A DNA stretch of 64,000 nucleotides from an uncultured Acidimicrobiia bacterium (GCA_963785035.1 CAWATG010000011.1:382553-446552), one strand, 5' to 3'; counted from the first letter of the stretch, positions 28,923 to 51,767 are shown. The notes: a model not told the origin generated them from the sequence alone. A program made the numbers and translations.

Positions 28923-28951
28923 TTAAGTAGTAACCCCTTTTCTGCCGATAT
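28923..28951 (+). promoter_or_regulatory. Putative sigma-28 (FliA/WhiG-type) promoter of the minor-pilin operon
   Basis: TTAAG-N16-GCCGATAT in the relA/minor pilin intergenic region. Confidence 0.7.
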
Positions 28952-29025
28952 ATGCAGCGACTTGGTCTCAAGTCGGTTTCGTCTATCGAGGGCGCCCATA
29001 AGGTGCGGAAGTCGAGCAGTCAGGG

Positions 29026-30405
29026 ATGAAGCGATGCTCTCCTCGTCATGAGGGTCGGCGACGTCATGCTCCTCGCGTGCCTTTCGTCGGTGGATGCGAT
29101 GCAGCCGCGCGTGACGGTGGCTTCAGCATCGTTGAGGTCATCGTGGCGATCAGTGTGTTCGCGATCCTGGCGACCGGTGTCGCAACCACGGTTGGCGGCG
29201 GACTGGACCTGGCTCGTACCAACCGGAACCGCGATGTTGCGGCGAACCTTGCGAGCCAGGAGATGGACAGGATTCGCAGCATGCCGTTTGCCTCGCTCGT
29301 TGTTGGCCAGACGGTGAGCACCGAGACCGTCCAAGGGGTGGCGTACACCGTGACACGTGATGCGACCTGGGTGGCGTCGAACGCGACCGTTGGCGCGTGC
29401 GACTCGGCCGGTGGGATTCCCAGCCTCCTTCGGGTGGATGTCTTGCTGCGGTGGGCCAGCATGGGGACCATTACTCCGGTGAAGTCATCAACGGTGTTGA
29501 GCCCGCCGGTCGGCGCGTACGACGCGGACACGGGCCACATCGCGGTGAAGATCAGGGACCGCAATGCGCTTCCGGCATCGGGAATTCCGGTCACGATTTC
29601 GCCTGCGCCGCCCGTTCCACGGCCCGCGACGATCACTACCACCACCGACGGGTGCGCATTCTTCGACCATCTCCCGGCCGGTACCTATTCGGTGTCGGTG
29701 AACTCTTCAGGATGGGTGGATCGTCAGTCGATCGTGGGTCCGGCGCAGAGCGCCGGAGTGCTCACAGGGGCGACCGTCGCAGTCGGCTTCGATTATGACC
29801 AGGCGGCGGCGTTGTCGGTGACCATCGCGCCCGCCGGTGGCGGAGTCATCCCGAGCGACATTCCCATTTCTGTGGGAAACACTGCGCTCTTGCCCAACGG
29901 GATCAAGGTCTATGCCGGAACCGGTGCGACCCGGACGATCGCGAATCTCTTCCCTGCGGCGGATGGCTACGACCTGTGGGCGGGCTCGTGTTTCGACGCG
30001 GATCCTGCTGCGAACGATGGTGTCAGCGATGTCTGGCCGGGTGGTCAGCGGACGGTCAAGGGTGAGACCGATCCGCTCGCGACAGGGATCGTGACATTGC
30101 CGATTTCGAGCGTCAGCGTCCTGGTGACCGAGCCCGATCCGCTTCCCGGCCCGCCGGTTCCGCCTCCGTTGCCCGTTGCCGGCGCCACGGTGATCGCGAC
30201 ACATGCGCCGGACGCCGAGTGCCCATCGGGACAGACCTTCACCTTGGGCGTCACCGACGCCACTGGGAGCATCGTGGCGGGGCTTCCCTATGGCGAGTGG
30301 CAGATCGAGGTTGTGGGGAGTCCGACACCCCTTTCCGGCTGGCCAACTGCGACGCTCGACCCGACTGGCGCCACGGTGGTCTCGGCAACGGTGGAACTCT
30401 CATGA
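29026..30405 (+). CDS. Large minor pilin (PilV-like) with beta-sandwich (carboxypeptidase-regulatory-like) repeats
   Basis: Prepilin site G|FSIVEVIVA (E5) near 29122; TTDGCAFF..LPAGTYSV and TDATGSIVAGLPYGEWQI repeats. Confidence 0.8.
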   Translation: MKRCSPRHEGRRRHAPRVPFVGGCDAAARDGGFSIVEVIVAISVFAILATGVATTVGGGLDLARTNRNRDVAANLASQEMDRIRSMPFASLVVGQTVSTETVQGVAYTVTRDATWVASNATVGACDSAGGIPSLLRVDVLLRWASMGTITPVKSSTVLSPPVGAYDADTGHIAVKIRDRNALPASGIPVTISPAPPVPRPATITTTTDGCAFFDHLPAGTYSVSVNSSGWVDRQSIVGPAQSAGVLTGATVAVGFDYDQAAALSVTIAPAGGGVIPSDIPISVGNTALLPNGIKVYAGTGATRTIANLFPAADGYDLWAGSCFDADPAANDGVSDVWPGGQRTVKGETDPLATGIVTLPISSVSVLVTEPDPLPGPPVPPPLPVAGATVIATHAPDAECPSGQTFTLGVTDATGSIVAGLPYGEWQIEVVGSPTPLSGWPTATLDPTGATVVSATVELS

Positions 30406-31082
30406 CGAGGATGCAGCGCTTGGCGCGGCGAGCGATCCGCAACGCGCACGACGACAGCGGAACCTCCTTGGCGGAACTCGCAGTGACGATGCTGTTGTTG
30501 TCGGTGATCCTGGCTGTGTCCTACCAATCGGTTGGCTCGTTGTCCAAGGCCGTCGCCGGGACCGACCGGCGCGTGGAGAACCTCGGCGAAGCACGTCACC
30601 TGATGAAGGTCACCAGCCGTGATCTTCGGACAGCGACGCGACTCCAGGCCGGTACAGCCGCGTTCGTCACGGCGGACGCCAAGAACGTGATCTTTTACGC
30701 GAACCTCAACAACCCGACGAGCGGTCCGCGACGCGTTCGGATCTATGTCGACACGCAGACGCGCCTCATCGAGGAGGTGACTCCGCCGGACGCTTCCTCG
30801 GTGCCACCGAACTACACCTACCTGGTCGGGCCGGTCACTACTCGCCTCGTTGGAAGGTTCGTCGCGAACGCGCCGAGCCAGCCGATCTTCACCTATTACG
30901 ACGTGAACGGCACCCAACTGACCTCGGTTCCACTCAATGCCGCGGATCGGTTGGCCGTTCGACAGGTCAAGGTCGCACTGTCGATTCGCAGATCAACGGT
31001 GCTCAATGTCGGTCTGACGACACTCGAGAACCGGGTACGCCTTCCGAATCTCGACTACCAGACCGCACTGGCAGGCCCGTGA
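30402..31082 (+). CDS. Minor pilin (PilW/PulJ-like)
   Basis: DDSG|TSLAELAVTMLLL prepilin motif, RDLRTA helix, FTYYD; ATGA overlap with the upstream gene. Confidence 0.8.
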   Translation: MTRMQRLARRAIRNAHDDSGTSLAELAVTMLLLSVILAVSYQSVGSLSKAVAGTDRRVENLGEARHLMKVTSRDLRTATRLQAGTAAFVTADAKNVIFYANLNNPTSGPRRVRIYVDTQTRLIEEVTPPDASSVPPNYTYLVGPVTTRLVGRFVANAPSQPIFTYYDVNGTQLTSVPLNAADRLAVRQVKVALSIRRSTVLNVGLTTLENRVRLPNLDYQTALAGP

Positions 31083-32801
31083 TGTTGTACCGATGGGTCC
31101 GAAGTCGTGTCGATCCGGGAGTGCCCGGCGAGCCAAATCATGGCGAGGGTGGTATCGCACTGGTCGTGGTGATGCTCATGGTGGTCGCGCTGTTCACGCT
31201 TGCCGCCGCAACGGTGAGCTTCGCCGAGGGATCGCTCAACCTGTCCAAACAGGATCAGGACTGGAACGCGTCGCTGGCGGCCGCGGAGGCGGGCATCGAC
31301 GACTACATCCATCGCATCAACGAGAACGGGAACTACTGGATCTATTCGGCGTCGAGTCCGCCGCCCGACGGTAACGGGGCGTTCTCGGGATATGTGCCGG
31401 TCCCGGGAAGTTCGAGCAGCTCCAAGTTCCGTTACAGCGTTGACAGTTCCAAGATCACGGTCGACGGCACGCTCAAACTCACGTCGACCGGCAACGTCGG
31501 TGGTGTGAAGCGGACCGTTGGAGCGACGCTGCGTCGGCGTAGTTTCATCGACTATCTGTGGTTCACCGATTTCGAGACGCTCGACCCTGCGCTCTACGTC
31601 GGGTCGTCGTCGTCGTTCACCCCGGGCGGAGGCGCAGACCCGCTGTGCTCGCTATTACTACGGCCCGGTGGGTACTCGTCGCGATGTGAGCGGGGTCTCG
31701 GACTACTCCGGTGACACCAACACCAAGAACTGCGTCGACATCAACTTCATCACGGCCGACACCATCAACGGGCCTGCCCACAGCAACGACGCGTACTTGC
31801 GTTGCGGCGCACCGCGGTTCAACGGCGACACCTCGACGAGCTGGAACACGAGCGCACCTCGATACCGCACGAACACCAGCTGCTCGACTTCGCCGGCTCC
31901 GATATTCGCGAATGCCGGCGATCCGAGATACCTCCCAACGCTTCCGATCCCGCCGTCGAACTCCGCGATCAAGGTTGAGACGGCACCGTTGACCGCCGGC
32001 GGCTCCTACGGTGGATGTCTCTATACGGGCCCCACAAGTATCGTGCTCAATGCGGCGGGAACGATGACGGTGACCAGCCCGTTCTCGAAACAGACGAACA
32101 ATGGCTGCGTCACCTCCGGCACCGGTCCTCTTCCGGTCAACGGCGTGATCTATGTGCAGAACGTGCCTGCAGGGTCGAGCGATCCGAACTACACGGCGGG
32201 CTGTCCCTACAGCGTGCGATACGGCGGTATCGCGACCAATCCGCTGCGGGCGCATCCGCTCGGGTATCCGACGGCCAACGACACGGCATCGTATGACTGT
32301 CGTGCGGGGGACCTGTTCGTGGAGGGCACCCTCAAAGGCCAGCTCACGATCGCGGCGGACAACAACATCGTGGTGACCTGGCACCTCACGTACAACGGCG
32401 GTTCGACCGGTACCGATCTGCTCGGCCTCGTCGCGAACAACACCGTGCAGGTGTATCACCCGGTCAACAGCAGCGGCACCCTCCTCGATGTCCGGCCCGC
32501 CACGGGCGGGACGCAGACATTCTCCAATGCGCAGATCTTTGCCGCGCTTCTCTCGGTCCAACACTCCTTCTTCGTGCCGCGATGGGACAAGGGAGGCTCG
32601 CTCGGCGACCTGATCGTCACAGGCGCTATCGCGCAACGCTTCCGTGGTCCGGTCGGAACCACCGGTGGCAACGGCTACGAAAAGACGTACACCTACGACC
32701 AACGCCTGAAGTATCTCTCACCGCCGCGGTTCCTCAATCCGATCGCGTCGGCCTGGGCCGTCGCCGTCTGGGTCGAGCAGAAGACACCCGCTGGGCTCTG
32801 A
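31079..32801 (+). CDS. PilX-like minor pilin with large Cys-containing C-terminal domain (frameshift ~31625)
   Basis: EGG|IALVVV (no E5), AAAEAGI PilX motif, C-terminal YDQRL..SPP.F; ORFs 31079..31714 and 31518..32801 join into one protein. Confidence 0.78.
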
Positions 32802-32869
32802 ATCCCACTCTTGGATCGGCCAGGCCACGAGTGAGGCCGCGAGGGCCTGCCCGGTAGCATGCCCATCGC

Positions 32870-34168
32870 ATGAACGAATCCAAGGCTGGCGCCGACGTGT
32901 TCCGCGCGCCCATCGGCACCCACGACGTGCTGGCCCCGGCATCGAATCGGTGGATCGAGCTCGTCAGCCGATTTGCCGGCCTGGCGGCTCGTTATGGCTT
33001 CGGCTTGGCGATCACGCCCCTGTTCGAGCACCGCGAGGTCTTTGCCCGGGTTGGTGAAACGACCGACGTCGTACGCAAGGAGATGTACGACTTCGAGGAC
33101 AAGGGTGGCCGGGCGCTGGCGTTGCGCCCCGAAGGTACAGCGCCGATCGTGCGCGCCTATGTGCAGCACCGCCCGACGCCACCGTGGAAAGCCTGGTACC
33201 TCGCACCCAACTTTCGCTACGAACGCCCGCAGAAGGGCCGGTACCGACAGCACTACCAGCTCGGCGCGGAGGTCCTCGGCATCGACGATCCCGAAATCGA
33301 CGTCGAGATCATCGCGCTCGCGCATGCCTTCTATCGTGAGCTCGGTCTGACGGGTGTGCGGCTCCTGCTCAACTCGATGGGTGACGAACACAGCCGTCCG
33401 CGTTATCACGGCGCGCTGCGTGCCTACCTGCTTGACCACTGTGCCGAACTGGGCGAGGAGTTCGCCGCTCGCGTCGAGGCAAACCCGCTGCGGATTCTCG
33501 ATTCGAAGAATCCCGACTGGCGTGCAGTCACCGAAGGCGCGCCTGTCATCACCGACTTTCTCTCGGACGAATCGGCGGCGCATTTGGCGTCGGTCCAAGC
33601 CGGACTCGCCGAGCTGGGTATCGACTACGAGCCTGCGCCACGGCTCGTTCGCGGCTTCGACTACTACACGCGCACGGTCTTCGAGTTCGCTGCCGATGCC
33701 CTCGACGCCGCACAGAACGCGATCGGTGGCGGTGGTCGCTATGACCGGTTGGCAGAGGAGATGCACGGCCCACCAACGCCTGGTATCGGCTTCGGAATCG
33801 GTATCGAACGAGTGCTCCTGGCTTGTGATGCCGAGGAGGTGCTCGCGCCGCCGACAGCGACCGTCGACGCATTCGTCATCGATGCGCTGGAGCCTGATGC
33901 GCCCGTCGGCATGTCTTCGGCACTGGTGCTCGCTGCATTGCGATCACGGGGTATCGCCGCGGATCGTGCCTACGGCGGCCGTTCGGTGAAGGCGCAATGG
34001 AAGGTCGCCGACCGGTCCGGCGCACGATTCGGCGTGATGCTCGGCACCGCCGAGGCCGAGCGCGGCGCGGTTGGTGTCAAGGACCTGCGCAATGGTCGCC
34101 AGGTTGAAGTACGCCAGGAGGACGTTGTCTCCTGGATCGCCACTCGTCTCGAGGAGCAACGCCCGTGA
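32870..34168 (+). CDS. hisS: Histidine--tRNA ligase
   Basis: KEMY.F.D, LRPEGTA, FRYERPQKGRYRQH, LVRGFDYY, GGGRYD. Confidence 0.97.
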   Translation: MNESKAGADVFRAPIGTHDVLAPASNRWIELVSRFAGLAARYGFGLAITPLFEHREVFARVGETTDVVRKEMYDFEDKGGRALALRPEGTAPIVRAYVQHRPTPPWKAWYLAPNFRYERPQKGRYRQHYQLGAEVLGIDDPEIDVEIIALAHAFYRELGLTGVRLLLNSMGDEHSRPRYHGALRAYLLDHCAELGEEFAARVEANPLRILDSKNPDWRAVTEGAPVITDFLSDESAAHLASVQAGLAELGIDYEPAPRLVRGFDYYTRTVFEFAADALDAAQNAIGGGGRYDRLAEEMHGPPTPGIGFGIGIERVLLACDAEEVLAPPTATVDAFVIDALEPDAPVGMSSALVLAALRSRGIAADRAYGGRSVKAQWKVADRSGARFGVMLGTAEAERGAVGVKDLRNGRQVEVRQEDVVSWIATRLEEQRP

Positions 34169-35920
34169 TGCGCACCCACATGGCCGGCAAACTCGGCGCC
34201 ACCGACATCGGTACCGATGTCACGCTGTGCGGATGGGTCGCCAGCCGACGTGATCACGGTGGCGTCGTGTTCCTTGACGTGCGTGATGTCTCGGGCATCG
34301 TGCAGGTCGTCGTCGATCCGTCTCAGGCAGGCGGTGAGGACGCGCACCGTGTGCGTGATGAGTTCGTCGTTCGCATCACCGGCACGGTCCGGTCCCGACC
34401 CGACGGCACGCGTAATCCCGATCTTGCAACCGGTGACATCGAGGTGAGCAGCGTCGCCCTCGAGGTCCTTTCCGAGTCGGATCCGTTGCCGTTCCAACTC
34501 TCCCAAGCCGACGATGTCGACGAAGTCCTCCGACTGCGGCACCGTTATCTCGATCTCCGGCGTCCGCGACTCGCAGGCAACCTTCGGTTGCGCGCGAACG
34601 GTGAATCACGCGCTGCGCACGTCGATGGCCGCCCAGGACTTCACCGAGGTCGAGACGCCGATGCTGATCGCCTCGACTCCCGAGGGTGCGCGTGACTTCA
34701 TCGTGCCGTCACGGCTGACCCCCGGATCGTTCTACGCGCTTCCGCAGAGCCCACAACTGTTCAAGCAGCTCCTGATGGTCGGCGGGATCGATCGTTACTT
34801 CCAGATCGCCCGATGCCTACGCGACGAGGACCTGCGCGCAGATCGTCAATTCGAATTCATGCAGTACGACGCCGAGATGAGCTTCGCCGACCAGGAAGAT
34901 GTCATGGAGGTCGTGACTCGAGCCGTCGGCGATGCTGTCGAGGCGGCGACAGGCACTCGCCCGAATCCGTTCGCGACGATGACCTGGCGTGAGGCCATGG
35001 AGCGGTTCGGTTCGGACAAGCCCGATGTTCGATTCGCCATGGAGCTTGTCGAGCTCACCGAGGTGTTCGCGACGACGGAGTTCAAGGCATTCCAAAGTGA
35101 GGCCGTCAAAGGAATCCTCGTCTCGGGCGAGGGCGGTGTCTCACGCTCGAAGCTCGACAACCTCACCGATCGCGCCAAGCAACTCGGTGCGGCAGGCCTG
35201 GTCTGGATGCGTGTCGAGGCTGGTGGAACCCTCAATTCCCCGGTGGCCAAGTTCTGCTCCGAGGACGAGCAGCGCGGCATTGTCGAAGCGCTTGGTGCAC
35301 GCGAAGGCGATCTTGCGCTCCTGGTGGCGGGGGAGCGCCGCGTGTGCAATCACGTGTTGGGAGTGCTTCGCCTCGATCTGGGACGGCCTCCGGTCAATGA
35401 GGGCGGCCTCCACTTCCTGTGGGTCGTCGACTTTCCGTTGTTCGAGGGTCTGGCCAGTGACGGCGCGCCGATTCCTGCGCATCACCCGTTCACGATGCCG
35501 CACCCCGACGATCTTGCGATGCTTGAAACCGCGACCGGCCCAGAACTGCTGGCGGTCCGCTCACAGGCCTATGACCTCGTCCTCAACGGCTGGGAGCTCG
35601 GTTCGGGCAGTGTTCGAATCCACCGTGGGGATCTCCAGGCGAGAATCTTTGCGCTGTTGGGTATCGGGGCGGAGGAGGCACAGGCGCGGTTCGGATTCCT
35701 GCTCGACGCCTTCCGCTTCGGTGCGCCACCACATGCCGGTTTTGCCTTCGGCGTCGACCGACTCGTCGCGCTCCTCGCCGGTGAGGAGAACATTCGCGAG
35801 GTCATCGCCTTCCCGAAGACGCAGTCGGGCCATGACCCGCTCACGGGCGCGCCGACCGTCGTCGACCCCACACTCCTGCGGGACGTCGGTATCAGCGTGT
35901 TGGCGCCCCGCAAGAAGTAG
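34165..35920 (+). CDS. aspS: Aspartate--tRNA ligase (frameshift ~34597)
   Basis: MRTH, RDHGG, RYLDLRR, TPEGARDF, LPQSPQLFKQ, HHPFT, GAPPHAG, VIAFPK. Confidence 0.97.
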
Positions 35921-35948
35921 CAATCGGTGCGCTCGCTAACCTTGGCGC

Positions 35949-37298
35949 ATGGCCGAAAACCTCTTCGCGAGTGCGGTCGAAACGCGCCTGGCGCAGCGCG
36001 CGCCGCTCGCTGCGCGCATGCGGCCTCGAGCACTCGATGAGATCGTCGGCCAACGACATCTGATCGGACCGGGTCAGCCTCTTCGGACGTTGATCGAATC
36101 GGACCGGCTGTTCTCCGTGGTCCTGTGGGGGCCGCCCGGGACCGGGAAGACCACGATCGCGCGCGTTGTCGCAGGAGTATCGGAACGGTATTTCGAACCG
36201 CTCTCGGCCGTCACCGCCGGCGTGAAGGACGTCCGCGATATCGCCGAACGTGCGCGGGCGCGTCTGGGTGAGCACGGGCGAGGAACGATCCTGTTTCTCG
36301 ATGAGGTGCACCGCTTCAGTCGTACGCAACAGGATGCGCTGTTGCCCCATGTCGAGGAAGGCTTGTTCGTCCTGATCGGTGCGACGACCGAGAATCCGTT
36401 CTTCTCGTTGACGGCGCCGTTGCTCTCTCGCTCGACGTTGTTTCGTCTGGAGCCCATCGTCGCGGAAGACCTCGCGAGGCTGGTGCGGGCAGCGCTGGAG
36501 GAGGAACGCGGCCTGGGCGCCGACAAACTCAGCATCGACGACGACAGCCTGGCCCACCTTGTCGACCAGGCCGAGGGCGACGCTCGCCACCTCCTGACCT
36601 CGCTCGAAGTCGCCGCGGCACTTGCGCTCGAAGCGGAACGCAGCACGATCAGCGTCGGCGACGCGGAGGCCGCGTTGGCGATGCGCGTCATCCGTTACGG
36701 CGCCGATGACCACTACGACGTCGTCTCGGCGTTCATCAAGAGCATCCGTGGTTCCGATGTCGACGCGGGTCTGTACTGGTTGGCTCGGATGCTCGAAGCG
36801 GGCGAGGACGCTCGCTTCATCGCGCGTCGGCTCGTCATCCTGGCGTCGGAGGACATCGGAATGGCCAACCCGCTGTCGTTGCTGATCGCCGAGTCAGCCG
36901 CGCGTGCGGTCGAGTTCGTCGGACTCCCCGAGGCGCAACTGAATCTCGCGCAGGCGGTGATCCATCTTGCGACCGCCGCAAAATCCAACTCTGTCACGAC
37001 CGCACTTGGCGCCGCGTTCGCGGATGTGCGCGATCGTCCCTCGGGTGCGGTGCCTGCTCACCTTCGGGACGCGCATTTTGCCGGCGCAGCGAAACTTGGC
37101 CACGGCAAGGGTTACCAGTACCCTCACGACGCGCCCGGCGGCTGGGTCGACCAGCAGTACCGGCCCCCGGAGTTGGCGGGCAGGCGGTATTACCAACCTG
37201 GTCCACACGGGGCCGAAGCTGCGATTGCCGCAGCGTGGTCGCAGCGCCGCTCCGCTGGATTGGCGATGGATGCAAGCATCGAAGAACCGGAGCGCTGA
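35949..37298 (+). CDS. rarA: Replication-associated recombination protein A
   Basis: PLAARMRP, GPPGTGKTT, DEVHRF, GATTENP, SAFIKSIRGSD. Confidence 0.96.
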   Translation: MAENLFASAVETRLAQRAPLAARMRPRALDEIVGQRHLIGPGQPLRTLIESDRLFSVVLWGPPGTGKTTIARVVAGVSERYFEPLSAVTAGVKDVRDIAERARARLGEHGRGTILFLDEVHRFSRTQQDALLPHVEEGLFVLIGATTENPFFSLTAPLLSRSTLFRLEPIVAEDLARLVRAALEEERGLGADKLSIDDDSLAHLVDQAEGDARHLLTSLEVAAALALEAERSTISVGDAEAALAMRVIRYGADDHYDVVSAFIKSIRGSDVDAGLYWLARMLEAGEDARFIARRLVILASEDIGMANPLSLLIAESAARAVEFVGLPEAQLNLAQAVIHLATAAKSNSVTTALGAAFADVRDRPSGAVPAHLRDAHFAGAAKLGHGKGYQYPHDAPGGWVDQQYRPPELAGRRYYQPGPHGAEAAIAAAWSQRRSAGLAMDASIEEPER

Positions 37299-37660
37299 TG
37301 GATGATTCGGATGTCGCAATCACGGTGATCGTGATCGGTTCGGCGATGATCGTCGGCGGGCTCTGTGTCGTTCTGGTCATGTTGGTTCGTACGTTACGGG
37401 CGTTGCGCGCCACCGTCGATGAGCTCCAACGCGAGACGCTCAGCACGGTGCGCGAGCTGCATGACGGCGCGCGGCTTGCCGCCACGGACCTGGACAATCT
37501 GGATACGTTGCTCTCGACGGCCGACACCGCATCACGTCTGGCGTATAGGACCGTGACCAACCCAGTGGTGAAGACCGTCGCTGCAGGAGCCGGTGCAAAG
37601 AAGGCAATCTGGCGTTTACGCCATCCACGCGGCACGCCTCCCGGCAACGGACCCCGGTAG
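37298..37660 (+). CDS. Hypothetical membrane/coiled-coil protein (DUF948-like)
   Basis: N-terminal TM then amphipathic helix; position upstream of alaS matches actinobacterial DUF948 synteny. Confidence 0.6.
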   Translation: MDDSDVAITVIVIGSAMIVGGLCVVLVMLVRTLRALRATVDELQRETLSTVRELHDGARLAATDLDNLDTLLSTADTASRLAYRTVTNPVVKTVAAGAGAKKAIWRLRHPRGTPPGNGPR

Positions 37661-37675
37661 GAGCAGAAGGTAGCG

Positions 37676-37951: not shown

Positions 37952-38040
37952 GGTTGGGGCAGCAGCGGTGGAGCCATGGATCCGCCGAGGTCGCGGAGCG
38001 GGTGTCGGGGATCGGGGGTTTCTGGCGGTAGCCTGAACCT

Positions 38041-43148: not shown

Positions 43149-43192
43149 ACCCCGGGCCGGCGGGCCCGCACCCGGGTGTGCAGAGGTTTCGC

Positions 43193-43221
43193 TCAAGGTG
43201 CACCCTTCAGGATGCCGATCA
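43193..43221 (+). promoter_or_regulatory. Putative sigma-28-type promoter of the DUF4388 gene
   Basis: TCAAG-N16-GCCGATCA; RBS AGGAGG at 43231. Confidence 0.72.
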
Positions 43222-43245
43222 CCATGTGTTAGGAGGTATCCGTCA

Positions 43246-44292
43246 GTGGCCCTTATGGGAACTCTGGACACAATTGCACTGGATGACGTGTTCGGTCTCC
43301 TGGAGCATGCCAGGAAGACGGGCGCGCTCCATGTGAATGCCCCGCATTTCGCCGGATTGCTGTTCTTCGTCGACGGTCAGATCTCGGCCGGGCAGAGCGA
43401 CCTCGCCTCCATGGCGGTGGAAAGGACCCCTGAGGAGTTCTCGAACCACATCGTCGATCTCATGTGTGAGCTGCTGCTCCTCAGCGAGGGAGACTTCGAG
43501 TTTCGCACCGAAGAAGTGTTCGACGCAGGCGGTGTTCAACCGGTGTCGACCCAGGCAATGCTGGGGCACGTCCGTTCGATCCTCGCAGACTGGCCGACGG
43601 TCGAGACGGTGATCCCGTCGAACACCGTGCAGCCACGCCTGGTCGATGAGCCCTACTACGAAACCGTGACGGTCGATCGTGCGGCATGGCGGGTGCTCTT
43701 CGCCGTCGACGGCGTTCGTACGGTTCGCGAGATCGCATTGGCGGTCAATTCCGGCATCGTTGCGACGAGTTTCGCATTACGTGACCTGGTTCATGTCGGC
43801 GCCGTGGAGATCTTGGGGTCCGATGGGAGCGTGATCGCGGACGTTCATTCGGTGGACGTGGCCTCGCCAGACGTCCAACGAGTGGGTCGAAACGCCGGCC
43901 CGCCCTCGGAGGTGGTGGAGGACATGGGCGACGACGATTCGGCGCTCGATGCGCCATTGGACGACGATCCCACGACCGACCATGACGCGCTCTTGGCATC
44001 CCTGCACGACCTTTCTTCGTATGGGACTGCGGGATCGAAAACTGCAGGCGCCTCGGTCTTCGACCAGACCGGCGAAGGTCGGTCCGGCAGGCTCGGCCTT
44101 ACCGACCTGAGCAGATATCCACGGATTCCTGCGGCACGGGAGATCGAGGCGCAGGGCGAGGTACAGGGCGACGGGCCGGGTTGGGGGCCGGGGGAGTTCC
44201 CAGCCGACATGACGAACGCCGAGGACGCCTCCTCTCAAACCGAGGAGCGGGGTGTCCTGATGCGGATGTTCGCCACCCTCCGCGAGAGCTGA
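43246..44292 (+). CDS. DUF4388 (PATAN-like) domain protein with winged-helix-like segment and acidic disordered tail
   Basis: GTG start after AGGAGG; MALMGTLDTIALDDVFGLL..RKTGALHV, EGDFEF, WRVLFAVDGVRTVREIA. Confidence 0.78.
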   Translation: MALMGTLDTIALDDVFGLLEHARKTGALHVNAPHFAGLLFFVDGQISAGQSDLASMAVERTPEEFSNHIVDLMCELLLLSEGDFEFRTEEVFDAGGVQPVSTQAMLGHVRSILADWPTVETVIPSNTVQPRLVDEPYYETVTVDRAAWRVLFAVDGVRTVREIALAVNSGIVATSFALRDLVHVGAVEILGSDGSVIADVHSVDVASPDVQRVGRNAGPPSEVVEDMGDDDSALDAPLDDDPTTDHDALLASLHDLSSYGTAGSKTAGASVFDQTGEGRSGRLGLTDLSRYPRIPAAREIEAQGEVQGDGPGWGPGEFPADMTNAEDASSQTEERGVLMRMFATLRES

Positions 44293-44342
44293 CCGAAGCC
44301 TCACGGCGTTTCGACGGCAGGGGTGGTCGCCAGATCCAAGGG

Positions 44343-44370
44343 TTCAGACGCGCCCGGACAACGCCGATAA
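44343..44370 (+). promoter_or_regulatory. Putative sigma-28-type promoter of pilB
   Basis: TTCAG-N15-GCCGATAA (perfect -10 element). Confidence 0.62.
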
Positions 44371-44379
44371 ATGGGGAAA

Positions 44380-46854
44380 ATGCGGCTCTCTGTGCGTCTG
44401 GAGGAAACGCTGTCCACGAGCCAAAGCCTGGGAGCACTGCTCCGTGCAGAGGGCTTGCTAACGCAGGCCCAGCTCGACGCGGCAATTTCCGACCAGGAAG
44501 GCAGCGCCAAACCGCTCGGACGGATTCTTATCGACCGTGGTCTGATCACCGAAGTGGAGCTTGTTCGGACACTTGCTCGACAGCTCGGCATGGAGTTCGT
44601 CGACCTCGACGGCGTCGAGATCGACGCTTCGGCTGCCAACACGATTCCCGAAATGTTGGCGCGTCGCTACCAGGCATTGCCGATCGGCTGGGAAGGCGAA
44701 TTCTTGGTCCTCGCCGTCGCCGATCCCGCCAACGTGTTCGCCGTTGACGACATTCGTGCGATTGCGGGCGTCGAGCTCAAGACCGTGGTGGCGACCAGTT
44801 CCCAGGTTCTCGACGCCATCAGTCGAACATATCGCGCCGGCGGTGAATCGCCGACCGCCGGTCTCGTCGATGAATCTGAGCTGGTGCCCGACGCCGAGGT
44901 GGCCGACGCCGCTCACGCTGCGGATCGCGATGGCGAGAACGGAAGTTCGCTGGATGTTGCCAGGGCGATCTTCGACCAGATCTCGGACTTCGATGCGCCC
45001 GCCGAGCCGGAGCGCGGCGACAGCGTCGAACCAACGACCGCCGAAACGGCCGACGCAACGGCCGATGCAACGGTCGACGTAACGGCCGAAGCCGATGCCG
45101 TCGTTGCGGGGAGCGAGGTCGTCGAACCTGCGCCTGAACCGCCCAAGTCGCGGCGCCGGTCGAAGAAGGCTGCGATTGAACCCGAAGCGCTCGCCGACCT
45201 CGACGTGATCGCACAGGCAGCATCCGAAGCTGCGGCCGTCCTCGAATCCCCACCCGAGGAGGTGAAGGCCCCTGAGTCTGCGCGTGAAGGTCGTGGCGTC
45301 GGTGATGGCGTCAACGCCGAGATCGACCGTCAGCGCGAGCGCGCCGCGAAAATTGGAATGCCATTCGTTGACCTGACCGAGTGGCAGATCGACGCGAGCG
45401 TGGTGTCGCTCATTCCCGAGGCTGTCGCTCGTCGATACCAGGTGCTCCCGATTGGATGGGACGACGACCGTCTCGTCATCGCGATGTTCGACCCGACGAA
45501 CGTGTTCGCGATCGACGACATCCGCGCGATCACGAAAAGGGAGGTCAAGACCGTCGTCGTTGCGGGGTCGCAGCTTGGTGATGCGATCGACCGTGTCCAC
45601 CGTCTCGATTCCGAAGTCGACACCGTGGCGCAGGCCGCGGCGACCGAATTCGACACGCCCGACGACATCGCATCATTGCGTGAGGTCGTCGAGGATGCCC
45701 CGATCGTCAAGTTCGTCAACCTCTTGATCGCGCAGGCTGTGTCGGATCGGGCGTCGGACATCCATGTCGAGCCCACCGAACGTGACCTGCGGATCCGGTT
45801 CCGCATCGACGGTGTGCTGCACGAGGTGATGCACTCGCCCAAATCGATCCAGGCTGGTGTGATCAGCCGCCTCAAGATCATGGCTGAGATCGACATCGCC
45901 GAGCGCCGGATCCCCCAGGATGGACGCATCTCGCTGTCGATCGGCGGCAAGCCGGTCGATCTTCGTGTCGCAACGCTTCCCACGGTGTACGGCGAGAAGA
46001 TCGTCATGCGAATCCTCGACAAGAGCACCGCGCTGTTGCGGCTCGACGATCTGGGCTTCCTTCCCGAAGCGGGAAAGCGTTTCGAACAGTCCTACCGCAA
46101 GCCGTACGGAACCATTCTCGTAACCGGTCCCACCGGGTCGGGAAAGTCGACCACGCTGTACGCGACGCTGAACATTCTCAATGAACCGGATCGGAACGTC
46201 ATCACCGTTGAAGACCCGGTTGAGTATCGACTGGCCGGGATCAACCAGGTCCAGATCAATCCCAAGGCCGGGCTCTCGTTTGCGGCGGCCCTGCGATCGA
46301 TCCTCCGGTCGGATCCCGACATCGTCCTCGTCGGCGAGATCCGCGACCGGGAAACTGCGGTGATCGCTGTGGAGGCAGCGTTGACCGGTCACCTCGTGCT
46401 CTCGACCTTGCACACCAACGATGCCGCCTCGACACCGATGCGACTGGTCGAAATGGGTGTGGAGCCGTTCCTCGTGACGAGCGCGCTCGACTGCGTCGTC
46501 GCCCAGCGGCTGGCTCGGCGCCTCTGCGAGCGCTGCCGCGAGCCGTTCCAGCCGACGGAGGCGGATCTGCTCGCTGCGTCCTGGCACGTCGAGGATCTCG
46601 ACGAGCTGCCGACGCTGTATCGGGCGGCGGGATGCGCCACCTGTGGGCGGACGGGCTATAAGGGGCGTTTCGGTATTCATGAGGTGATGACGCTTTCCGA
46701 GGAGATCGAGCGGGCGATCATCGAGCGCAGGTCGACCGAGGACATCAAGAAGATCGCGACCATGCAGGGGATGGTCCCGATGCGAGATGACGGCCTCCGT
46801 AAGGTTGCGGCAGGGCTGACGAGCCTCGAGGAAATCTTCCGAGTCGTCGCCTGA
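44380..46854 (+). CDS. pilB: Type IV pilus extension ATPase with MshEN motif and two T2SSE_N domains
   Basis: ASDIH.EP, RIPQDGR, GPTGSGKSTTLY, EDPVEY, GEIRDRET, tetra-Cys (CERC...CATC); start could be 44371 or 44380. Confidence 0.95.
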   Translation: MRLSVRLEETLSTSQSLGALLRAEGLLTQAQLDAAISDQEGSAKPLGRILIDRGLITEVELVRTLARQLGMEFVDLDGVEIDASAANTIPEMLARRYQALPIGWEGEFLVLAVADPANVFAVDDIRAIAGVELKTVVATSSQVLDAISRTYRAGGESPTAGLVDESELVPDAEVADAAHAADRDGENGSSLDVARAIFDQISDFDAPAEPERGDSVEPTTAETADATADATVDVTAEADAVVAGSEVVEPAPEPPKSRRRSKKAAIEPEALADLDVIAQAASEAAAVLESPPEEVKAPESAREGRGVGDGVNAEIDRQRERAAKIGMPFVDLTEWQIDASVVSLIPEAVARRYQVLPIGWDDDRLVIAMFDPTNVFAIDDIRAITKREVKTVVVAGSQLGDAIDRVHRLDSEVDTVAQAAATEFDTPDDIASLREVVEDAPIVKFVNLLIAQAVSDRASDIHVEPTERDLRIRFRIDGVLHEVMHSPKSIQAGVISRLKIMAEIDIAERRIPQDGRISLSIGGKPVDLRVATLPTVYGEKIVMRILDKSTALLRLDDLGFLPEAGKRFEQSYRKPYGTILVTGPTGSGKSTTLYATLNILNEPDRNVITVEDPVEYRLAGINQVQINPKAGLSFAAALRSILRSDPDIVLVGEIRDRETAVIAVEAALTGHLVLSTLHTNDAASTPMRLVEMGVEPFLVTSALDCVVAQRLARRLCERCREPFQPTEADLLAASWHVEDLDELPTLYRAAGCATCGRTGYKGRFGIHEVMTLSEEIERAIIERRSTEDIKKIATMQGMVPMRDDGLRKVAAGLTSLEEIFRVVA

Positions 46855-46878
46855 GAGCGGCCGGGCCGACTTGGCTCA

Positions 46879-46906
46879 TCAAGGTTTGGGCTCCGATCGC
46901 CGATAT
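46879..46906 (+). promoter_or_regulatory. Putative sigma-28-type promoter of pilT-pilC (probably leaderless transcript)
   Basis: TCAAG-N15-GCCGATAT, ATG 6 nt downstream. Confidence 0.75.
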
Positions 46907-46912
46907 GTGGGC

Positions 46913-48451
46913 ATGTTGGCTGGTCAGGCGCGACGCCTGGGTGAGTTCCTTGTGGATCGTCACGTGCTCTCGCGCGACGACCTCGAGGTGGCGGTTGCCG
47001 AGTCCCGCCAGTCGGGCGACGCCCTGCCCAAGATCCTGCTGCGTGCAGGTCTGGTGGCGGAGAAGGATCTCACCGCGGCGATTGCCGAGTCGCTCAGTCT
47101 TCGCTTCATCGACTTCAGTGCCACCCCGTTGCATCCCGATGCCGCGTCGATCATTCCGGCCGACGTCGCTCGACGGCATCTTGCAATCGGGGTGCACTTC
47201 GAGGGTGACAAGTTGGTTGTGGCGTTTGCGGAGCCCAACGACGACGAGGCGGTCGCTGCGGTTGCGGCCTCGACAGCATTCGAGATCATCGCGGTGGCAG
47301 CGGGTCGCCTCGAGCTGAGCAACGTCGTGAAAGCGGTATACGGCGCGGGTGCTCACTCGGCCGATGATGTGGCCGGCAGCGATGGGGTTCCGCTCGACAT
47401 CAACGAGCTCCTCGAATGCGTCCTCCAGCGAAAAGGATCGGACCTCCACCTGACGGCGGGTTCACCCCCGGTCGTGCGCGTGCACGGCCAGCTCGTGCCA
47501 CTTCGTGAGTTCCCGGTGCTCAACGGCTCCCAGATCCGCGAGATGATCTACGCCGTGCTGTCCCAGAAGCAGCGCGAGAAGTTCGAGAACGAGCACGAAC
47601 TCGACACGTCGTACTCGATGCCCGGTCGCAGTCGCTTCCGCGTCAATGTGTTTCTGCAGCGCGACTCGGTCGGATGCGTCATGCGTGTGATCCCATACGA
47701 GATCGTCGACTTCGACACGCTGGGTGTTCCGCCGACGGTTCGCCCCTTTGCCGAACTCCCGCGGGGGCTGGTGCTGGTCACCGGTCCGACCGGTTCGGGA
47801 AAGTCGACGACCCTCGCGTCGCTCATCGACATCGTGAATCGGACGAAGCCCGTTCACATCATGACGGTCGAGGACCCGATCGAGTTCCTGCACCAACACA
47901 AGCGCGCGATCGTGAATCAGCGCGAGGTGGGGGAGGACACGTATTCGTTCGCAGCGGCGCTCAAGCATGTGTTGCGCCAGGATCCAGACGTCATCCTCGT
48001 CGGCGAGATGCGTGACCTCGACACCATCACCACGGCGTTGACGGCTGCCGAGACCGGTCACCTCGTCTTCGCGACCCTGCACACGCAGGACGCGCCGCAG
48101 TCCATCGACCGCATCATCGACGTGTTCCCGTCGGCGCAGCAGCAGCAGGTTCGGGTGCAGCTCGCATCGTCATTGCAGGGAATCGTGACGCAACAGCTCC
48201 TACCGACGCCTGACGGTACGGCCCGGGTCATTGCGTGCGAGGTACTGGTCGCCACCCCGGCGATCCGGAACCTGATCCGCGAAGGCAAGGTCCATCAGAT
48301 CTATTCCTTGATGCAGGCAGGCGGCAAGTTCGGAATGATCACGATGGATCAGTCGCTTGCGAGCTTGGTGACCGCCGGACGCATCACTTTTGATGTCGCT
48401 GCCGAGCGTTGTGCGAACGAAGGCGATCTCCAGCGCCTCTTGGGCCGGTAA
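46913..48451 (+). CDS. pilT: Type IV pilus retraction ATPase with N-terminal MshEN/T2SSE_N domain
   Basis: GSDLHL, RFRVNVF, GPTGSGKSTT, VNQREVG, GEMRD and the PilT hallmark AIRNLIRE; ~155-aa N-terminal extension starting RLGEFL. Confidence 0.93.
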   Translation: MLAGQARRLGEFLVDRHVLSRDDLEVAVAESRQSGDALPKILLRAGLVAEKDLTAAIAESLSLRFIDFSATPLHPDAASIIPADVARRHLAIGVHFEGDKLVVAFAEPNDDEAVAAVAASTAFEIIAVAAGRLELSNVVKAVYGAGAHSADDVAGSDGVPLDINELLECVLQRKGSDLHLTAGSPPVVRVHGQLVPLREFPVLNGSQIREMIYAVLSQKQREKFENEHELDTSYSMPGRSRFRVNVFLQRDSVGCVMRVIPYEIVDFDTLGVPPTVRPFAELPRGLVLVTGPTGSGKSTTLASLIDIVNRTKPVHIMTVEDPIEFLHQHKRAIVNQREVGEDTYSFAAALKHVLRQDPDVILVGEMRDLDTITTALTAAETGHLVFATLHTQDAPQSIDRIIDVFPSAQQQQVRVQLASSLQGIVTQQLLPTPDGTARVIACEVLVATPAIRNLIREGKVHQIYSLMQAGGKFGMITMDQSLASLVTAGRITFDVAAERCANEGDLQRLLGR

Positions 48452-48468
48452 GGCGAGGAGTCCACGAC

Positions 48469-49689
48469 ATGGCAACGACATTTGCATACAAGGTTCGGGA
48501 TCGCAACGGCAAGATCGTCGAAGGCGAGCTCGAGGGCGACAGCTTGGTCCTCGTGACCGGAAAGCTTCGGACGATGGGCTACACGCCCATTTCGATCCAG
48601 CAGCAGGACGCCTCGAAACTCAAGACCGAAATCAAGATCCCCGGATTTTCCAACCGGATCAAGCTCAAGGACGTGGCCGTCTTCTCGCGTCAGTTCGCGA
48701 CGATGATCAACTCCGGCCTCTCGATGCTGCGTGCGCTGACAATCCTCTCGGAACAGACCGAGAACAAGGAGCTTGGCAGGGTTGCCGGTGAGGTCCGCCT
48801 CGACGTTGAGCGCGGCAGTTCCCTGTCAGGCGCGCTGTCTCGCCACCCGAAGGCGTTCAACCGGCTCTATGTCTCGATGGTCAAGTCGGGCGAGGCCGGC
48901 GGTGTGTTGGACTCGGTGCTGATGCGTCTCGCCGACACGATCGAGAAGCAGGTGGAGCTTCGCCGCAAGATCAAATCCGCGATGACCTACCCGGTCGTTG
49001 TGGGCTTCCTCGTGTTCGCCATCGCAGGCGCGATGATCGTCTTCGTGGTCCCGATGTTCGGGAACATCTACAAGGATCTCGGCGGCACGCTGCCGTTACC
49101 GACACGGGTGCTGCTGAAGGTCTCCGAGATCGTGCGCAAGTTCGTGATTCTGTTGGTGATGGCCGGAATCGGAATTGTCGTCGGGCTGCGGAAGTGGGTC
49201 AACACCCCGTCGGGTCGTCGTCAGTGGGATGCGTTGAAGTTGCGCATTCCGGTGTTCGGCGGACTCGTGCGAAAGACCGCGTTGGCTCGTTTCTCTCGCA
49301 CGCTCGCCGCATTGACGCGCTCGGGCGTTCCGATTCTGGAGTCGCTCGAGATCGTTGCCGATACAGCCGGCAACGAGGTCGTCGCCGACGCGGTGCGCGA
49401 TACCCAGGCTGCGGTGAAGGGCGGCGAGTCACTCGCGAAGCCGTTGGAGCGCCATGAGGTCTTCCCGCCGATGGTTGTGCAGATGATGGCGGTGGGTGAG
49501 GAGACCGGTGCGCTCGACGAGATGCTCGACAAGATCGCGGACTTCTACGACCAGGAGGTCGAGGCGACCGTTGACGCGCTGACCTCGCTGATCGAACCGC
49601 TACTGATCGTGGTGATGGGTCTCACCGTCGGAGGCATGATCATCAGTTTGTACATGCCGATGTTCAACATCGTGAAGCTCATCGAATAG
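48469..49689 (+). CDS. pilC: Type IV pilus platform protein (T2SS F family)
   Basis: FSRQFATMINSG, GEAGGVLD, KSAMTYP, GEETGALDEML, LIEP; RBS GAGGAG. Confidence 0.96.
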   Translation: MATTFAYKVRDRNGKIVEGELEGDSLVLVTGKLRTMGYTPISIQQQDASKLKTEIKIPGFSNRIKLKDVAVFSRQFATMINSGLSMLRALTILSEQTENKELGRVAGEVRLDVERGSSLSGALSRHPKAFNRLYVSMVKSGEAGGVLDSVLMRLADTIEKQVELRRKIKSAMTYPVVVGFLVFAIAGAMIVFVVPMFGNIYKDLGGTLPLPTRVLLKVSEIVRKFVILLVMAGIGIVVGLRKWVNTPSGRRQWDALKLRIPVFGGLVRKTALARFSRTLAALTRSGVPILESLEIVADTAGNEVVADAVRDTQAAVKGGESLAKPLERHEVFPPMVVQMMAVGEETGALDEMLDKIADFYDQEVEATVDALTSLIEPLLIVVMGLTVGGMIISLYMPMFNIVKLIE

Positions 49690-49710
49690 CGGCGAGGCCC
49701 GCCTCGAGTA

Positions 49711-50929
49711 TCACGGGGCGCCCTGGTGGAGGCGGTGACTGTGAAACAGGCCGCGCTCAGCCGATGTGAGCACGCTCGCCGCGCAGATGATGATGAACCA
49801 GGGGGCGAGGCCGGCGCCGAAAACCTCTGCGCCCATCACCACGCACGCGATCGGTGTGTTGGCTGCCCCGGCGAAGACCGCGACGTAGCCGAGCATGGCG
49901 AACAGCGGAATCGGTGCACCGAGCCAATCGCCGAGCGTGACACCCGCCGTCGCGCCCATGACGAAGAGCGGGGTGACCTCGCCTCCCTGAAAGCCGCTTC
50001 CGAGGGTCACTGCGGTGAGGACGAGCTTCCACGCGAAGGCGAACGTAGCGATGCCGACGCCGCCTGCGAGCGACGCCTCCACCAGATCGGTCGAGGCGCC
50101 GAGATATTCGCGAGTTCCGACGATTCCGGTCAGGGCGATGATCGCCAAACCGCCGATTGCCAAACGGAGCGGCGGGTACTGCAGGAGGTGGCCGAGCACC
50201 TTCTGGATCCGATGGGTGAGGCCGACGAACGAAGCCGCAAGGAGCCCGCACGCCAGCCCGGCGAGCGCGACCTTCACAACGAGCAGCGCTGATACGTCGA
50301 AGTCGGGCCGAGTGCTGAGCACGTCCTCGTGGAGCCCGAATCCGCGCACGATGCGAGCGGCGACGAACGCCGCCGCGAGCGCAGGAACAAAAGCGCCGTA
50401 GCGGCGGTGTCCGCGTGCCTGGACCTCGAGAGCGAATACCGCGCCCGCGACAGGCGTACCGAACGCGCCGCCGAAAGCACCGGCCACGGCCGTGACCAAG
50501 ACCAGGCGCCGGTCGTCGCGGTCGAGTCGCAGCATGCGGGCCATCGCGTCGCTGAGGCTCCCCGCCATCTGTATCGCGACGCCCTCACGTCCGGCCGAAC
50601 CGCCGAAGAGATGCGTACTCACGGCTGCTACCAGCACGAAGGGCGCCATGCGACGCGGCACCCACGCGCGGCTCGTGGATCTCGTCGATGATCAGGGCGT
50701 TGCCATGGCGCGCGTCGCCCGCGAAGTGGTGGTAGATCGCCCCCATCGTCAACCCGGCCACCGGCAGGATCCACAACATCCAGGAATGCGCGAGGCGGGT
50801 TCGGGTCGCCCAGGAGAGGCCCTCGAGGAAGGCCGAGACGGCGAGACCGGAGACGGCGCCGACCAGTACACCGAGCCCGATGCCCCGAGCGGTGCGCCGA
50901 GCGGCACGCGCCGGGAACCATCGCCACAT
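49711..50929 (-). CDS. CLC-family channel, CLC-F-type fluoride/proton antiporter (frameshift ~50665)
   Basis: GNALII, GGSAGREGVA, GGEVTP, ANTP motifs; ORFs 50585..50941 and 49711..50661 join. Confidence 0.85.
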
Positions 50930-51004
50930 CCCGAAAGTCACGTTATCGGCCGTATCGGGGTGAAATGCGCAGGTTCAAATAGCCCGAAGGTTCCCAACGA
51001 GTAC

Positions 51005-51033
51005 TCAAGGTCCCCTCGGGAACTGGCCGATAG
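51005..51033 (+). promoter_or_regulatory. Putative sigma-28-type promoter of pilA
   Basis: TCAAG-N16-GCCGATAG. Confidence 0.75.
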
Positions 51034-51714: not shown

Positions 51715-51767
51715 ACGCACGGGCGTGATCAGCGTTTGATCACGAGCTGTGTGCGAACTGCGAAACA

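Follow-up and report, generated by a model that had tools for sequence, protein, structure and literature searches.

Sigma-28-type promoter sites before the type IV pilus genes of an uncultured Acidimicrobiia bacterium and a candidate WhiG-RsiG motility regulon

Which form of RNA polymerase transcribes the type IV pilus genes of an uncultured Acidimicrobiia bacterium, and do the promoter-like sites before these genes belong to a sigma-28 (FliA/WhiG) regulon? The question was raised by a stretch of 64,000 nucleotides (nt), hereafter the window, which is G000:C11:382553-446552 in genome G000 (2.85 Mb in 15 contigs, 63% G+C, 92% complete, contamination estimate 4.15%). An earlier note on this DNA had proposed five such sites, at 28923, 43193, 44343, 46879 and 51005, all intergenic and on the coding strand, before the minor pilins, DUF4388, pilB, pilT and pilA. 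All five were confirmed at these positions by sequence reading, all lie on the + strand in gaps between called genes, and Pfam scans confirmed the genes that follow them. The predicted promoters are:

28923..28951, + strand: minor-pilin operon promoter, -35 TTAAG (28923-28927), N16, -10 GCCGATAT (28944-28951)
43193..43221, + strand: DUF4388 promoter, -35 TCAAG (43193-43197), N16, -10 GCCGATCA (43214-43221)
44343..44370, + strand: pilB promoter, -35 TTCAG (44343-44347), N15, -10 GCCGATAA (44363-44370)
46879..46906, + strand: pilT-pilC promoter, -35 TCAAG (46879-46883), N15, -10 GCCGATAT (46899-46906)
51005..51033, + strand: pilA-pilD promoter, -35 TCAAG (51005-51009), N16, -10 GCCGATAG (51026-51033)

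We consider it quite likely that RNA polymerase with a WhiG/FliA sigma factor uses these five sites as promoters, that they form part of a motility regulon, and that the pilus genes are probably controlled by cyclic di-GMP (c-di-GMP) through the anti-sigma factor RsiG and the sigma factor WhiG2. With these promoters the type IV pilus genes would be transcribed as five separate units, namely the minor pilins, DUF4388, pilB, pilT-pilC and pilA-pilD.

GCCGAT was present in all five sites, followed by AT, CA, AA, AT and AG, and the central CGA was invariant. Compared to T(A/C)AA, the -35 elements read TCAA at N16 or N17 in three of the five sites and TTAA and TTCA in the other two; TTCAG recurs as a conserved -35 element in the pilT promoters of relatives. 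The earlier note had cited a sigma-28 consensus with a TAAA -35 element; the GCCGAT-type -10 element held in every case, and the local -35 element proved to be TCAAG (equivalent to TCAA-N16). The canonical TAAA-N15/16-GCCGATA was discarded as the motif of this genome, with 0 matches genome-wide. The pattern T[CT][AC]AG-N15/16-GCCGAT[AC] matched five times in the window when both strands were scanned, and none of 300 first-order Markov simulations reached five matches (mean 0.14, standard deviation 0.39, maximum 2).

The distances to the downstream genes differed. The minor-pilin site lies 49 nt past the relA stop codon (28874) with a predicted leader of 75-125 nt, and the DUF4388 leader is normal, with AGGAGG at 43231-43236 and a GTG start at 43246. 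The -10 element of the pilB site abuts in-frame ATG codons at 44371 and 44380, with a GTG at 44392, so that the leader is predicted to be absent or very short; the start codon is uncertain because an additional G follows 44389 in some metagenome contigs. The conserved start of pilT is MLAGQARRLGEFLV, and its ATG (46913) lies 6 nt from the -10 element, and the pilT mRNA is therefore predicted to be leaderless; in relatives the pilT leaders span 24-76 nt. The pilA site stands between pilA and a divergently oriented CLC channel gene (- strand), and the pilA leader would be roughly 140 nt long. Neither the Rfam nor the tRNA scan gave a match in the window, and no riboswitch was found in the pil leaders at gathering thresholds.

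For the genome-wide statistics, genes were called with a simple home-made codon-usage picker of open reading frames (ORFs), which gave 2962 genes and 14.4% intergenic DNA. The pattern used in the window matched 17 times in the genome, 10 times in intergenic DNA, and 5 of these 10 were the window sites. The exact form TCAAG-N15/16-GCCGAT occurred in 15 copies, 13 intergenic versus 2 coding, and this preference followed the spacing: 10 intergenic versus 1 coding at N15, 3 versus 1 at N16, 6 versus 8 at N14, and 0 versus 20 for N12, 13, 17, 18 and 19 summed. An unbiased count of 5-mer/N15-16/6-mer dyads in intergenic DNA, ranked by observed versus expected number (raw counts were dominated by GC-rich words), found TCAAG/GCCGAT 12 times versus 0.91 expected (Poisson p = 2.9e-10, or about 1e-3 when corrected for 4^11 dyads). 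Only three shifted forms of a TTAGCA...TGCTAA palindrome ranked above it, and most of the ten dyads ranking after it were its own shifts or reverse complements. One-mismatch sites at N15 numbered 40 in intergenic and 131 in coding DNA, about 18 of the intergenic ones being beyond the prediction from the coding rate. The frequency of the motif was far from background, with a strong intergenic excess at the proper spacing only.

The spacing bears on the possibility that the matches arose by chance or are the sites of another regulator or sigma factor (an extracytoplasmic function sigma factor, another group-3 sigma factor or a repressor operator), with the pilus genes transcribed by the housekeeping sigma factor. 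GCCGAT is indeed common in a genome of 63% G+C, with 116 copies in the window, and by itself was not enriched in intergenic DNA genome-wide (density ratio 0.92); two of the five -35 elements are also degenerate. Neither point accounts for an enrichment specific to spacing, for the same motif before flagellin, or for its retention at orthologous positions in the diverged intergenic DNA of many relatives, both described below. In addition, a search of the + strand of the pil gaps gave no consensus promoter of the sigma-70 type, although this is a weak test, and the bipartite form fits the published WhiG consensus T(A/C)AA-N16-GCCGATAA (PMC12871210). Chance or an unrelated regulator is for these reasons a very improbable source of the five sites.

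The closest relatives by PilB were metagenome-assembled genomes (MAGs) of Acidimicrobiia, with 71-79% identity and a common aroE-DUF4388-pilB-pilT-pilC order. The minor-pilin comparison covered relatives with at least 300 nt upstream, with one truncated locus and the paralogous or partial L151-L157 left out, and each locus of about 4.2 kb held exactly one T[CT][AC]AG-N15/16-GCCGAT match in nine of nine relatives, 35-90 nt upstream of the orthologous gene. Inspection by eye showed gTTCAGg-N14-GCCGATAT upstream of pilT in seven of nine relatives and TCAA(G/C/T)-N15/16-G(C/T)CGA(T/G/C) upstream of DUF4388 in nine of nine. A matching site preceded pilA in five of five loci (L063, L066, L074, L080 and L106), and matching sites stood directly before the pilB match in L061, L062 and L073. 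The minor-pilin, pilT, DUF4388 and pilA sites persisted amid otherwise diverged intergenic DNA. The pattern T[CT][AC]A[GC]-N15/16-G[CT]CGAT was then scored within 200 nt upstream of genes, against a background of 0.037 matches/kb over 80 loci. It was found before pilT in 14 of 44 loci (0.34 expected), before DUF4388 in 5 of the 11 loci where a start was found (0.08 expected) and before pilA in 3 of 16 (0.12 expected); the counts were 4 of 60 for pilC (0.46 expected), 2 of 44 for aroE (0.34 expected) and 0 of 20 for pilM (0.15 expected). Many loci of Thermoleophilia/Gaiellales carried TCAAG-N16-GCCGAA sites in their pil clusters, and sigma-28-type pil promoters therefore appear to be widespread beyond Acidimicrobiia.

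In MAGs of Thermoleophilia, Gaiellales and other actinobacteria (loci L079, L082, L084-L090, L093, L094, L097, L098, L100, L102, L103 and L107), a highly conserved element, gcTCAAGCC(C/G)GTTTTCGAAC(C/G)TGCCGAAgata, lies some 8 kb past the pilB start. About 9.5 kb upstream of it stands another conserved site, TCAAG...GCCGAA/T.

The pilus genes were not the only genes behind the motif. The flagellin gene (C5:550940-552130) has TCAAG-N15-GCCGATTG 120 nt upstream, and exact intergenic sites were also found upstream of a second pilT (near 654.7 kb on C5, with a frameshift in the assembly) and of each of two PAS-GGDEF-EAL genes that lie side by side (C11:240600 and C11:243134). A GGDEF-EAL gene (C15:86398) and two HAMP-GGDEF genes on C4 have exact sites at N14. 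Further exact intergenic sites precede a GAF protein, a CAP-domain repeat protein, a related repeat protein and an unknown 184-aa protein; with one mismatch allowed, sites also stand before cheA, an HD-GYP gene and an HDOD gene. A complete flagellar and chemotaxis cluster lies on C5 at about 527-578 kb. A very relaxed motif scan of that cluster returned mostly noise, and only the sites upstream of flagellin, cheA and whiG1 were credible. Given this cluster together with the flagellin, cheA and c-di-GMP targets, the motif defines a motility/c-di-GMP regulon and not a pilus-only one. The earlier proposal of a sigma-28 pilus regulon thus holds in that the pil genes are included and was too narrow in that flagellin, the second pilT, c-di-GMP enzymes and a GH114 glycosidase are included as well. 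The regulon probably comprises about 15-40 promoters, and secreted repeat proteins are among its products. In a comparison made post hoc, GCCGAT was followed by A in five of six pilus promoters (second pilT included) versus 3 of 15 other exact intergenic sites.

The glycosidase gene (C11:59958, within C11:59897-60842), whose product has a lipoprotein-like N-terminus, lies behind an exact site, which is suggestive of matrix degradation coupled with motility. A parallel with the sporangium-matrix hydrolases of Actinoplanes was considered and dropped as unsupported; 'GH114' is absent from PMC12691653. The two PAS-GGDEF-EAL genes (C11:240539-245536) have near-identical C-terminal halves, and TCAAGTGTC...GCCGATGTGA stands 36 nt before the start of each. 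The pair appears to stem from a recent tandem duplication in which the promoter was copied too.

A sigma-28 promoter needs a sigma factor to read it, and two genes of the FliA/WhiG class were found in the genome. The first, whiG2 (C11:176364-177146), encodes 260 aa and matches TIGR02479 FliA_WhiG over 176454-177128 with 274 bits (cut-off 189.6). It has a xerC-like gene on one side and rpsB-tsf-pyrH-frr on the other, which we take to be the neighbourhood of whiG in Streptomyces as well. WhiG2 aligned with Streptomyces venezuelae WhiG (6PFJ_A) with 315 bits (E 2.5e-93). The c-di-GMP contact residues K57, G61 and R62 (S. venezuelae numbering; PLVKFVAGRV vs PLVKYVAGRV) and the RsiG contact residues T235, L236, Y239, E240 and L242 in sigma-4 (LTLYYYEGL vs VTLYYYEGL), both sets named in PMC12871210, were identical. 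The C11 sigma factor fits the WhiG2 clade. Across the genomes of the same order, FliA/WhiG-class bit scores fell into two groups, 267-286 vs 135-240, and a WhiG2-type hit (267-286 bits) was present in 31 of 31 genomes, G000 included.

An anti-sigma partner was also found. The RsiG homologue on C5 (521684-522208, 175 aa) matched 6PFJ_T by phmmer with E 3.7e-12, residues 42-183 vs 28-165, so that both helices are covered, and it matched the Rubrobacter RsiG chains weakly. The strict RsiG motif, which twin-motif RsiG carries once on each helix of its coiled coil, had no exact match in a six-frame translation of the genome, and the candidate was found by allowing one mismatch. Its motif 2, EAQTSETRRRLHRVLD, fits E(X)3S(X)2R(X)3[Q/H](X)3D. 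In the order, an RsiG homologue was present in 30 of 31 genomes, and the exception is an 89% complete genome. A predicted complex of WhiG2, RsiG and two c-di-GMP scored 0.76 vs 0.00 for the best of three controls. In the calibration, 51 of 78 solved complexes and 2 of 108 mismatched pairs passed the mark. The runs agreed in at least 75% of contacts, the pLDDT (predicted local distance difference test) of the partner was at least 74, and c-di-GMP was carried along unscored. The modelled interface takes in WhiG2 residues 36-41, 43-45 and 219-225, i.e. the expected sigma-2 and sigma-4 residues. A homologous complex has already been solved, so the score speaks for likeness and does not demonstrate binding. 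A search for FlgM (PF04316) gave no match in this 92% complete genome.

The second sigma gene, whiG1 (C5:549902-550556), lies directly upstream of flagellin in the che/flagellar cluster, has H, S and E at the K57, G61 and R62 positions, and fits WhiG1. A TCAAG-N16-GTCGAT site at C5:549807-549833, about 70 nt before the gene, suggests that whiG1 is autoregulated; the gene caller had mislabelled this site as coding via a shadow ORF that arose from the frameshift in whiG1. The presence of a flagellar sigma factor raises the alternative that WhiG1 (FliA) alone reads the pilus promoters, as late flagellar genes without direct c-di-GMP/RsiG input. The organism is flagellated, its flagellin gene carries the same motif, whiG1 with its own upstream site adjoins that gene, and the consensus sequences of WhiG1 and WhiG2 overlap in the published scheme (PMC12871210). 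Actinoplanes, which lacks RsiG, is moreover described as using FliA-family sigma factors for both pili and flagella (PMC8325347). However, within the order FlhA was found in only 10 of 31 genomes, compared to the nearly universal WhiG2 and RsiG. Two genomes without an FlhA hit and with a single, WhiG2-type sigma factor of the FliA/WhiG class, G017 and G021, kept the motif before pilT and pilT2 (pilT sites TCAAG-N15-GCCGATAT in G017 and TACAG-N15-GCCGATAG in G021), and G017 kept it before the minor pilins too. The motif was present as well in G002 and G014, which also gave no FlhA hit. Left out of this comparison were G009 and G027, whose PilT matches begin no earlier than residue 150, so that the upstream region could not be placed, as well as G011, G016 and G022, which gave pilT paralogues only, and G026, which gave no match. 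The whiG1 gene of G000 is in addition frameshifted in the assembly, possibly through assembly error. The motif is kept in relatives with no FlhA hit and a WhiG2-type sigma factor only, which argues that WhiG2 reads the pil promoters in this lineage; in G000, WhiG1 could share them. Exclusive use of the pilus promoters by WhiG1 is in our view unlikely.

Several observations count against promoters of a WhiG2-RsiG regulon and have to be set beside those above. Two of the five -35 elements, TTAAG and TTCAG, deviate from the local TCAAG consensus. The intergenic and coding labels depend on our own simple gene caller, applied to an assembly with indel errors, and the pattern T[CT][AC]A[GC]-N15/16-G[CT]CGAT scored in relatives was picked after their sequences had been seen. 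No sigma-28-type site was found before pilMNO in a relaxed scan of the window, or before whiG2 or rsiG. Motif 1 of the RsiG homologue, ENELSFVRRLSQARIE, ends in E and not D, and its motif 2 has H in place of Q, an accepted variant according to PMC8325347. The reading frame of whiG1 is broken in two, with an overlap of the parts at C5:550170-550174. WhiG1 is present in this genome, its published consensus overlaps that of WhiG2, and either paralogue could therefore be the one that acts here. Finally, the earlier note had not seen the motif before housekeeping genes. This was true of the window, which contained no further match, and failed genome-wide: a perfect TCAAG-N16-GCCGATCG lies at C1:81997-82023, 17 nt before the start of topA, where it may be due to chance or mark an unexpected sigma-28 target, and sites with one mismatch stand before glnA, pyk and other genes. 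Some matches are therefore chance or unexpected targets.

The quality of the assembly matters for several of these points. Contigs of four metagenome runs (90-99% identity) differed from the window at two places, in four of four runs. In the window, aspS (34165-35920) is split into two overlapping frames, and the metagenome contigs, which lack one base at 34596, restore a single frame; the CLC gene (49711-50941, - strand) is split likewise, and contigs with CG after 50664 give a single frame. Both splits are probably assembly indels. Elsewhere in the assembly pyrH, fliM, flhB/flhA, pilT2 and whiG1 are split. In an assembly with indel errors, the frameshift in whiG1 is therefore no ground for calling it a pseudogene. 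Identical motif-bearing stretches were also seen on the contig pairs C1/C2, C5/C9, C9/C13 and C11/C14 (for example C1:16208 = C2:33694, C5:685632 = C9:10112 and C11:550574 = C14:34910), which points to duplicated or redundant contigs.

Control of the pilus genes by c-di-GMP, RsiG and WhiG2 could work as follows, by homology with the solved system. At high c-di-GMP, the twin-motif RsiG would sequester WhiG2 and the pilus operons would be silent. When c-di-GMP drops, WhiG2 would be freed and would transcribe the pilus genes and the genes for c-di-GMP turnover, which would create feedback. While flagella are being assembled, these promoters may also be used by WhiG1. A further idea, which we put forward tentatively and with more doubt than conviction, is that in this order the RsiG-(c-di-GMP)-WhiG2 module serves above all to switch type IV pili and does so independently of flagella; the idea draws on the near-universal WhiG2 and RsiG, on FlhA in 10 of 31 genomes and on the persistence of the motif where no flagellar genes were found. 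If so, a two-key logic would follow in which pil transcription needs low c-di-GMP for the release of WhiG2, piliation would be limited to a transient window while c-di-GMP climbs again, and in G000 either WhiG1 (flagellar assembly) or WhiG2 (c-di-GMP) would suffice to fire the promoters, as in an OR gate.

The genes around the five sites, with their Pfam matches, are:

26604-28874: relA (Pfam)
29026..32801, + strand: minor-pilin-like operon of four ORFs (29026/29077-30405, 30420-31082, 31121-31714 and 31686-32801)
between the minor-pilin operon and DUF4388: hisS, aspS, mgsA, alaS, ruvX, mltG and aroE
43246..44292, + strand: DUF4388-domain protein, 348 aa (PF14332, E 1.4e-12)
44371..46854, + strand: pilB extension ATPase, up to 827 aa (T2SSE E 1.1e-143, MshEN E 1.9e-45)
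46913-48451, + strand: pilT (T2SSE E 2.8e-47; N-terminal MshEN-like extension E 2.7e-9)
48469-49689, + strand: pilC (T2SSF E 3.4e-68)
49711-50941, - strand: CLC channel gene (Pfam)
51182-51739, + strand: pilA major pilin (N_methyl E 3.1e-7)
51872-52654, + strand: pilD prepilin peptidase (A24_N_bact E 5.1e-34, Peptidase_A24 E 1.3e-14)
53018-54790, + strand: pilM/N fusion (PilM_2 E 1.6e-41)
54787-55527, + strand: pilO-like gene (PilO/T2SSM_b)
55524-56180, + strand: ORF without known family
after the pilM/N/O region: aroC and aroK-aroB

Of the type IV pilus machinery, Pfam matches cover PilB, PilT, PilC, major pilin, prepilin peptidase and PilM/N/O. In the minor-pilin operon, ORF 1 has an N_methyl motif (E 1.7e-5) with G|FSIVE, ORF 2 has an N-terminus of the GTSLAE type, ORF 3 matches PilX_N weakly (E 0.009, under the cut-off) and ORF 4 matches no family. 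The N-terminus of PilB holds two tandem 24-residue MshEN-type motifs (residues 19-42 and 48-71, 5 residues apart), according to what we take to be the definition of this motif. The N-terminal MshEN-like domain on PilT is unusual. Since both PilB and PilT have MshEN-type regions, the pilus motors may bind c-di-GMP directly.

A terminator-like hairpin of seven pairs with a weak T tail lies at 28958-28975, 7 nt past the minor-pilin -10 element and 84 nt past the relA stop codon. A transcript from the predicted minor-pilin start would miss part of the 5' arm. The hairpin might, speculatively, stop read-through from relA and spare the sigma-28 transcript. In the dyad count, the strongest intergenic dyad was the TTAGCA...TGCTAA palindrome (6 copies vs 0.01 expected), which we presume to be CIRCE-like and to imply heat-shock control of the HrcA type.

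Judged by its closest named relatives, the organism is a flagellated member of the Acidimicrobiia with a small genome and not a sporangium former of the Actinoplanes kind. The Acidimicrobiia are a largely uncultured class, common in groundwater, soil and water, and the analysis would extend to them a WhiG-to-pilus circuit that has been mapped experimentally in Rubrobacter and Actinoplanes, with motif, WhiG2 and RsiG conserved over a 31-genome sample of the order. It yields an operon map of the pilus cluster and a candidate regulon list. With WhiG1, WhiG2, RsiG, flagella and pili in one genome, the organism provides a test case both for the sharing of promoters by sigma-28 paralogues and for the coordination of swimming versus pilus-based behaviour by c-di-GMP in monoderm bacteria.

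The classical systems of this type are FliA/SigD of Escherichia coli, Salmonella and Bacillus subtilis, with the promoter TAAA-N15-GCCGATAA, flagellin and chemotaxis targets and the anti-sigma factor FlgM; to our knowledge, type IV pilus genes are not in their regulons. The regulon described here resembles them in promoter architecture and in its flagellin and chemotaxis targets and differs in that no PF04316 match to FlgM was found.

The closest mapped system is that of Rubrobacter radiotolerans, where a promoter search and mapped starts placed three pil transcription units and five diguanylate cyclase (DGC) or phosphodiesterase (PDE) genes under WhiG (Schumacher et al. 2021, PMC8325347). In both organisms sigma-28-type promoters divide the pil cluster, DGC/PDE genes are targets, and a WhiG2-type sigma factor occurs with an RsiG homologue. 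In contrast to the single-motif dimer of Rubrobacter, the RsiG found here is of the twin-motif monomer type, as reported for three of four Acidimicrobiales species (PMC8325347). The Acidimicrobiia member also differs by its class, its flagella and its second, flagellar sigma-28 factor, by a -35 element of TCAAG and not TAAA, and by five promoters and not three, with starts that are predicted here and mapped in Rubrobacter.

The earlier note had linked FliA-family promoters to zoospore flagella and pili in Actinoplanes and had named control of Streptomyces WhiG by c-di-GMP through RsiG, and both are in print: according to PMC8325347, genes for flagella as well as for type IV pili are under WhiG-like sigma factors in Actinoplanes, and WhiG is controlled by RsiG together with c-di-GMP. 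As in Actinoplanes missouriensis, flagella and pili coexist here, both behind sigma-28-type promoters, and there are several sigma-28 paralogues (PMC8325347, PMC12871210). In contrast, Actinoplanes lacks RsiG according to PMC8325347, is filamentous with a large genome and ties expression to the sporangium, whereas the present organism has RsiG and 2.85 Mb and is presumably unicellular.

A 2026 preprint (Denis et al., PMC12871210) defines WhiG1 and WhiG2, gives the consensus T(A/C)AA-N16-GCCGATAA cited above and predicts regulons of motility, chemotaxis, type IV pilus and DGC/PDE genes, with pilus targets in Cellulomonadaceae, Cryptosporangiaceae, Sanguibacteraceae, Rubrobacteraceae and Jonesiaceae. 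It describes the two regulons as inseparable where both sigma factors are present. The genome studied here follows its scheme, with a flagellar-cluster WhiG1 that lacks the RsiG contact residues and an RsiG-linked WhiG2. The main text of the preprint has no mention of Acidimicrobiia, and its supplementary tables could hold such genomes. Our literature search returned nothing on WhiG regulons in Acidimicrobiia and nothing that joins Acidimicrobiia, type IV pili, flagella and c-di-GMP.

In S. venezuelae, the RsiG-(c-di-GMP)2-WhiG complex (6PFJ, 6PFV) is matched here by the 315-bit sigma factor with identical contact residues and by an anti-sigma factor homologous over both helices. Unlike the present organism, Streptomyces has the sporulation genes whiH and whiI as targets and no flagella, and the excerpts consulted name no type IV pilus target. 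An early role of WhiG in dispersal was proposed by Chandra and Chater 2014 (PMC4255298), at a time when, by their account, simple motile actinobacteria had not been analysed. The system is thus of a known kind: Rubrobacter and Actinoplanes are the described cases, and the 2026 preprint predicts it in several families. New here are the taxon, the five promoters, the TCAAG -35 element, the twin-motif RsiG beside both sigma-28 paralogues and the order-wide conservation.

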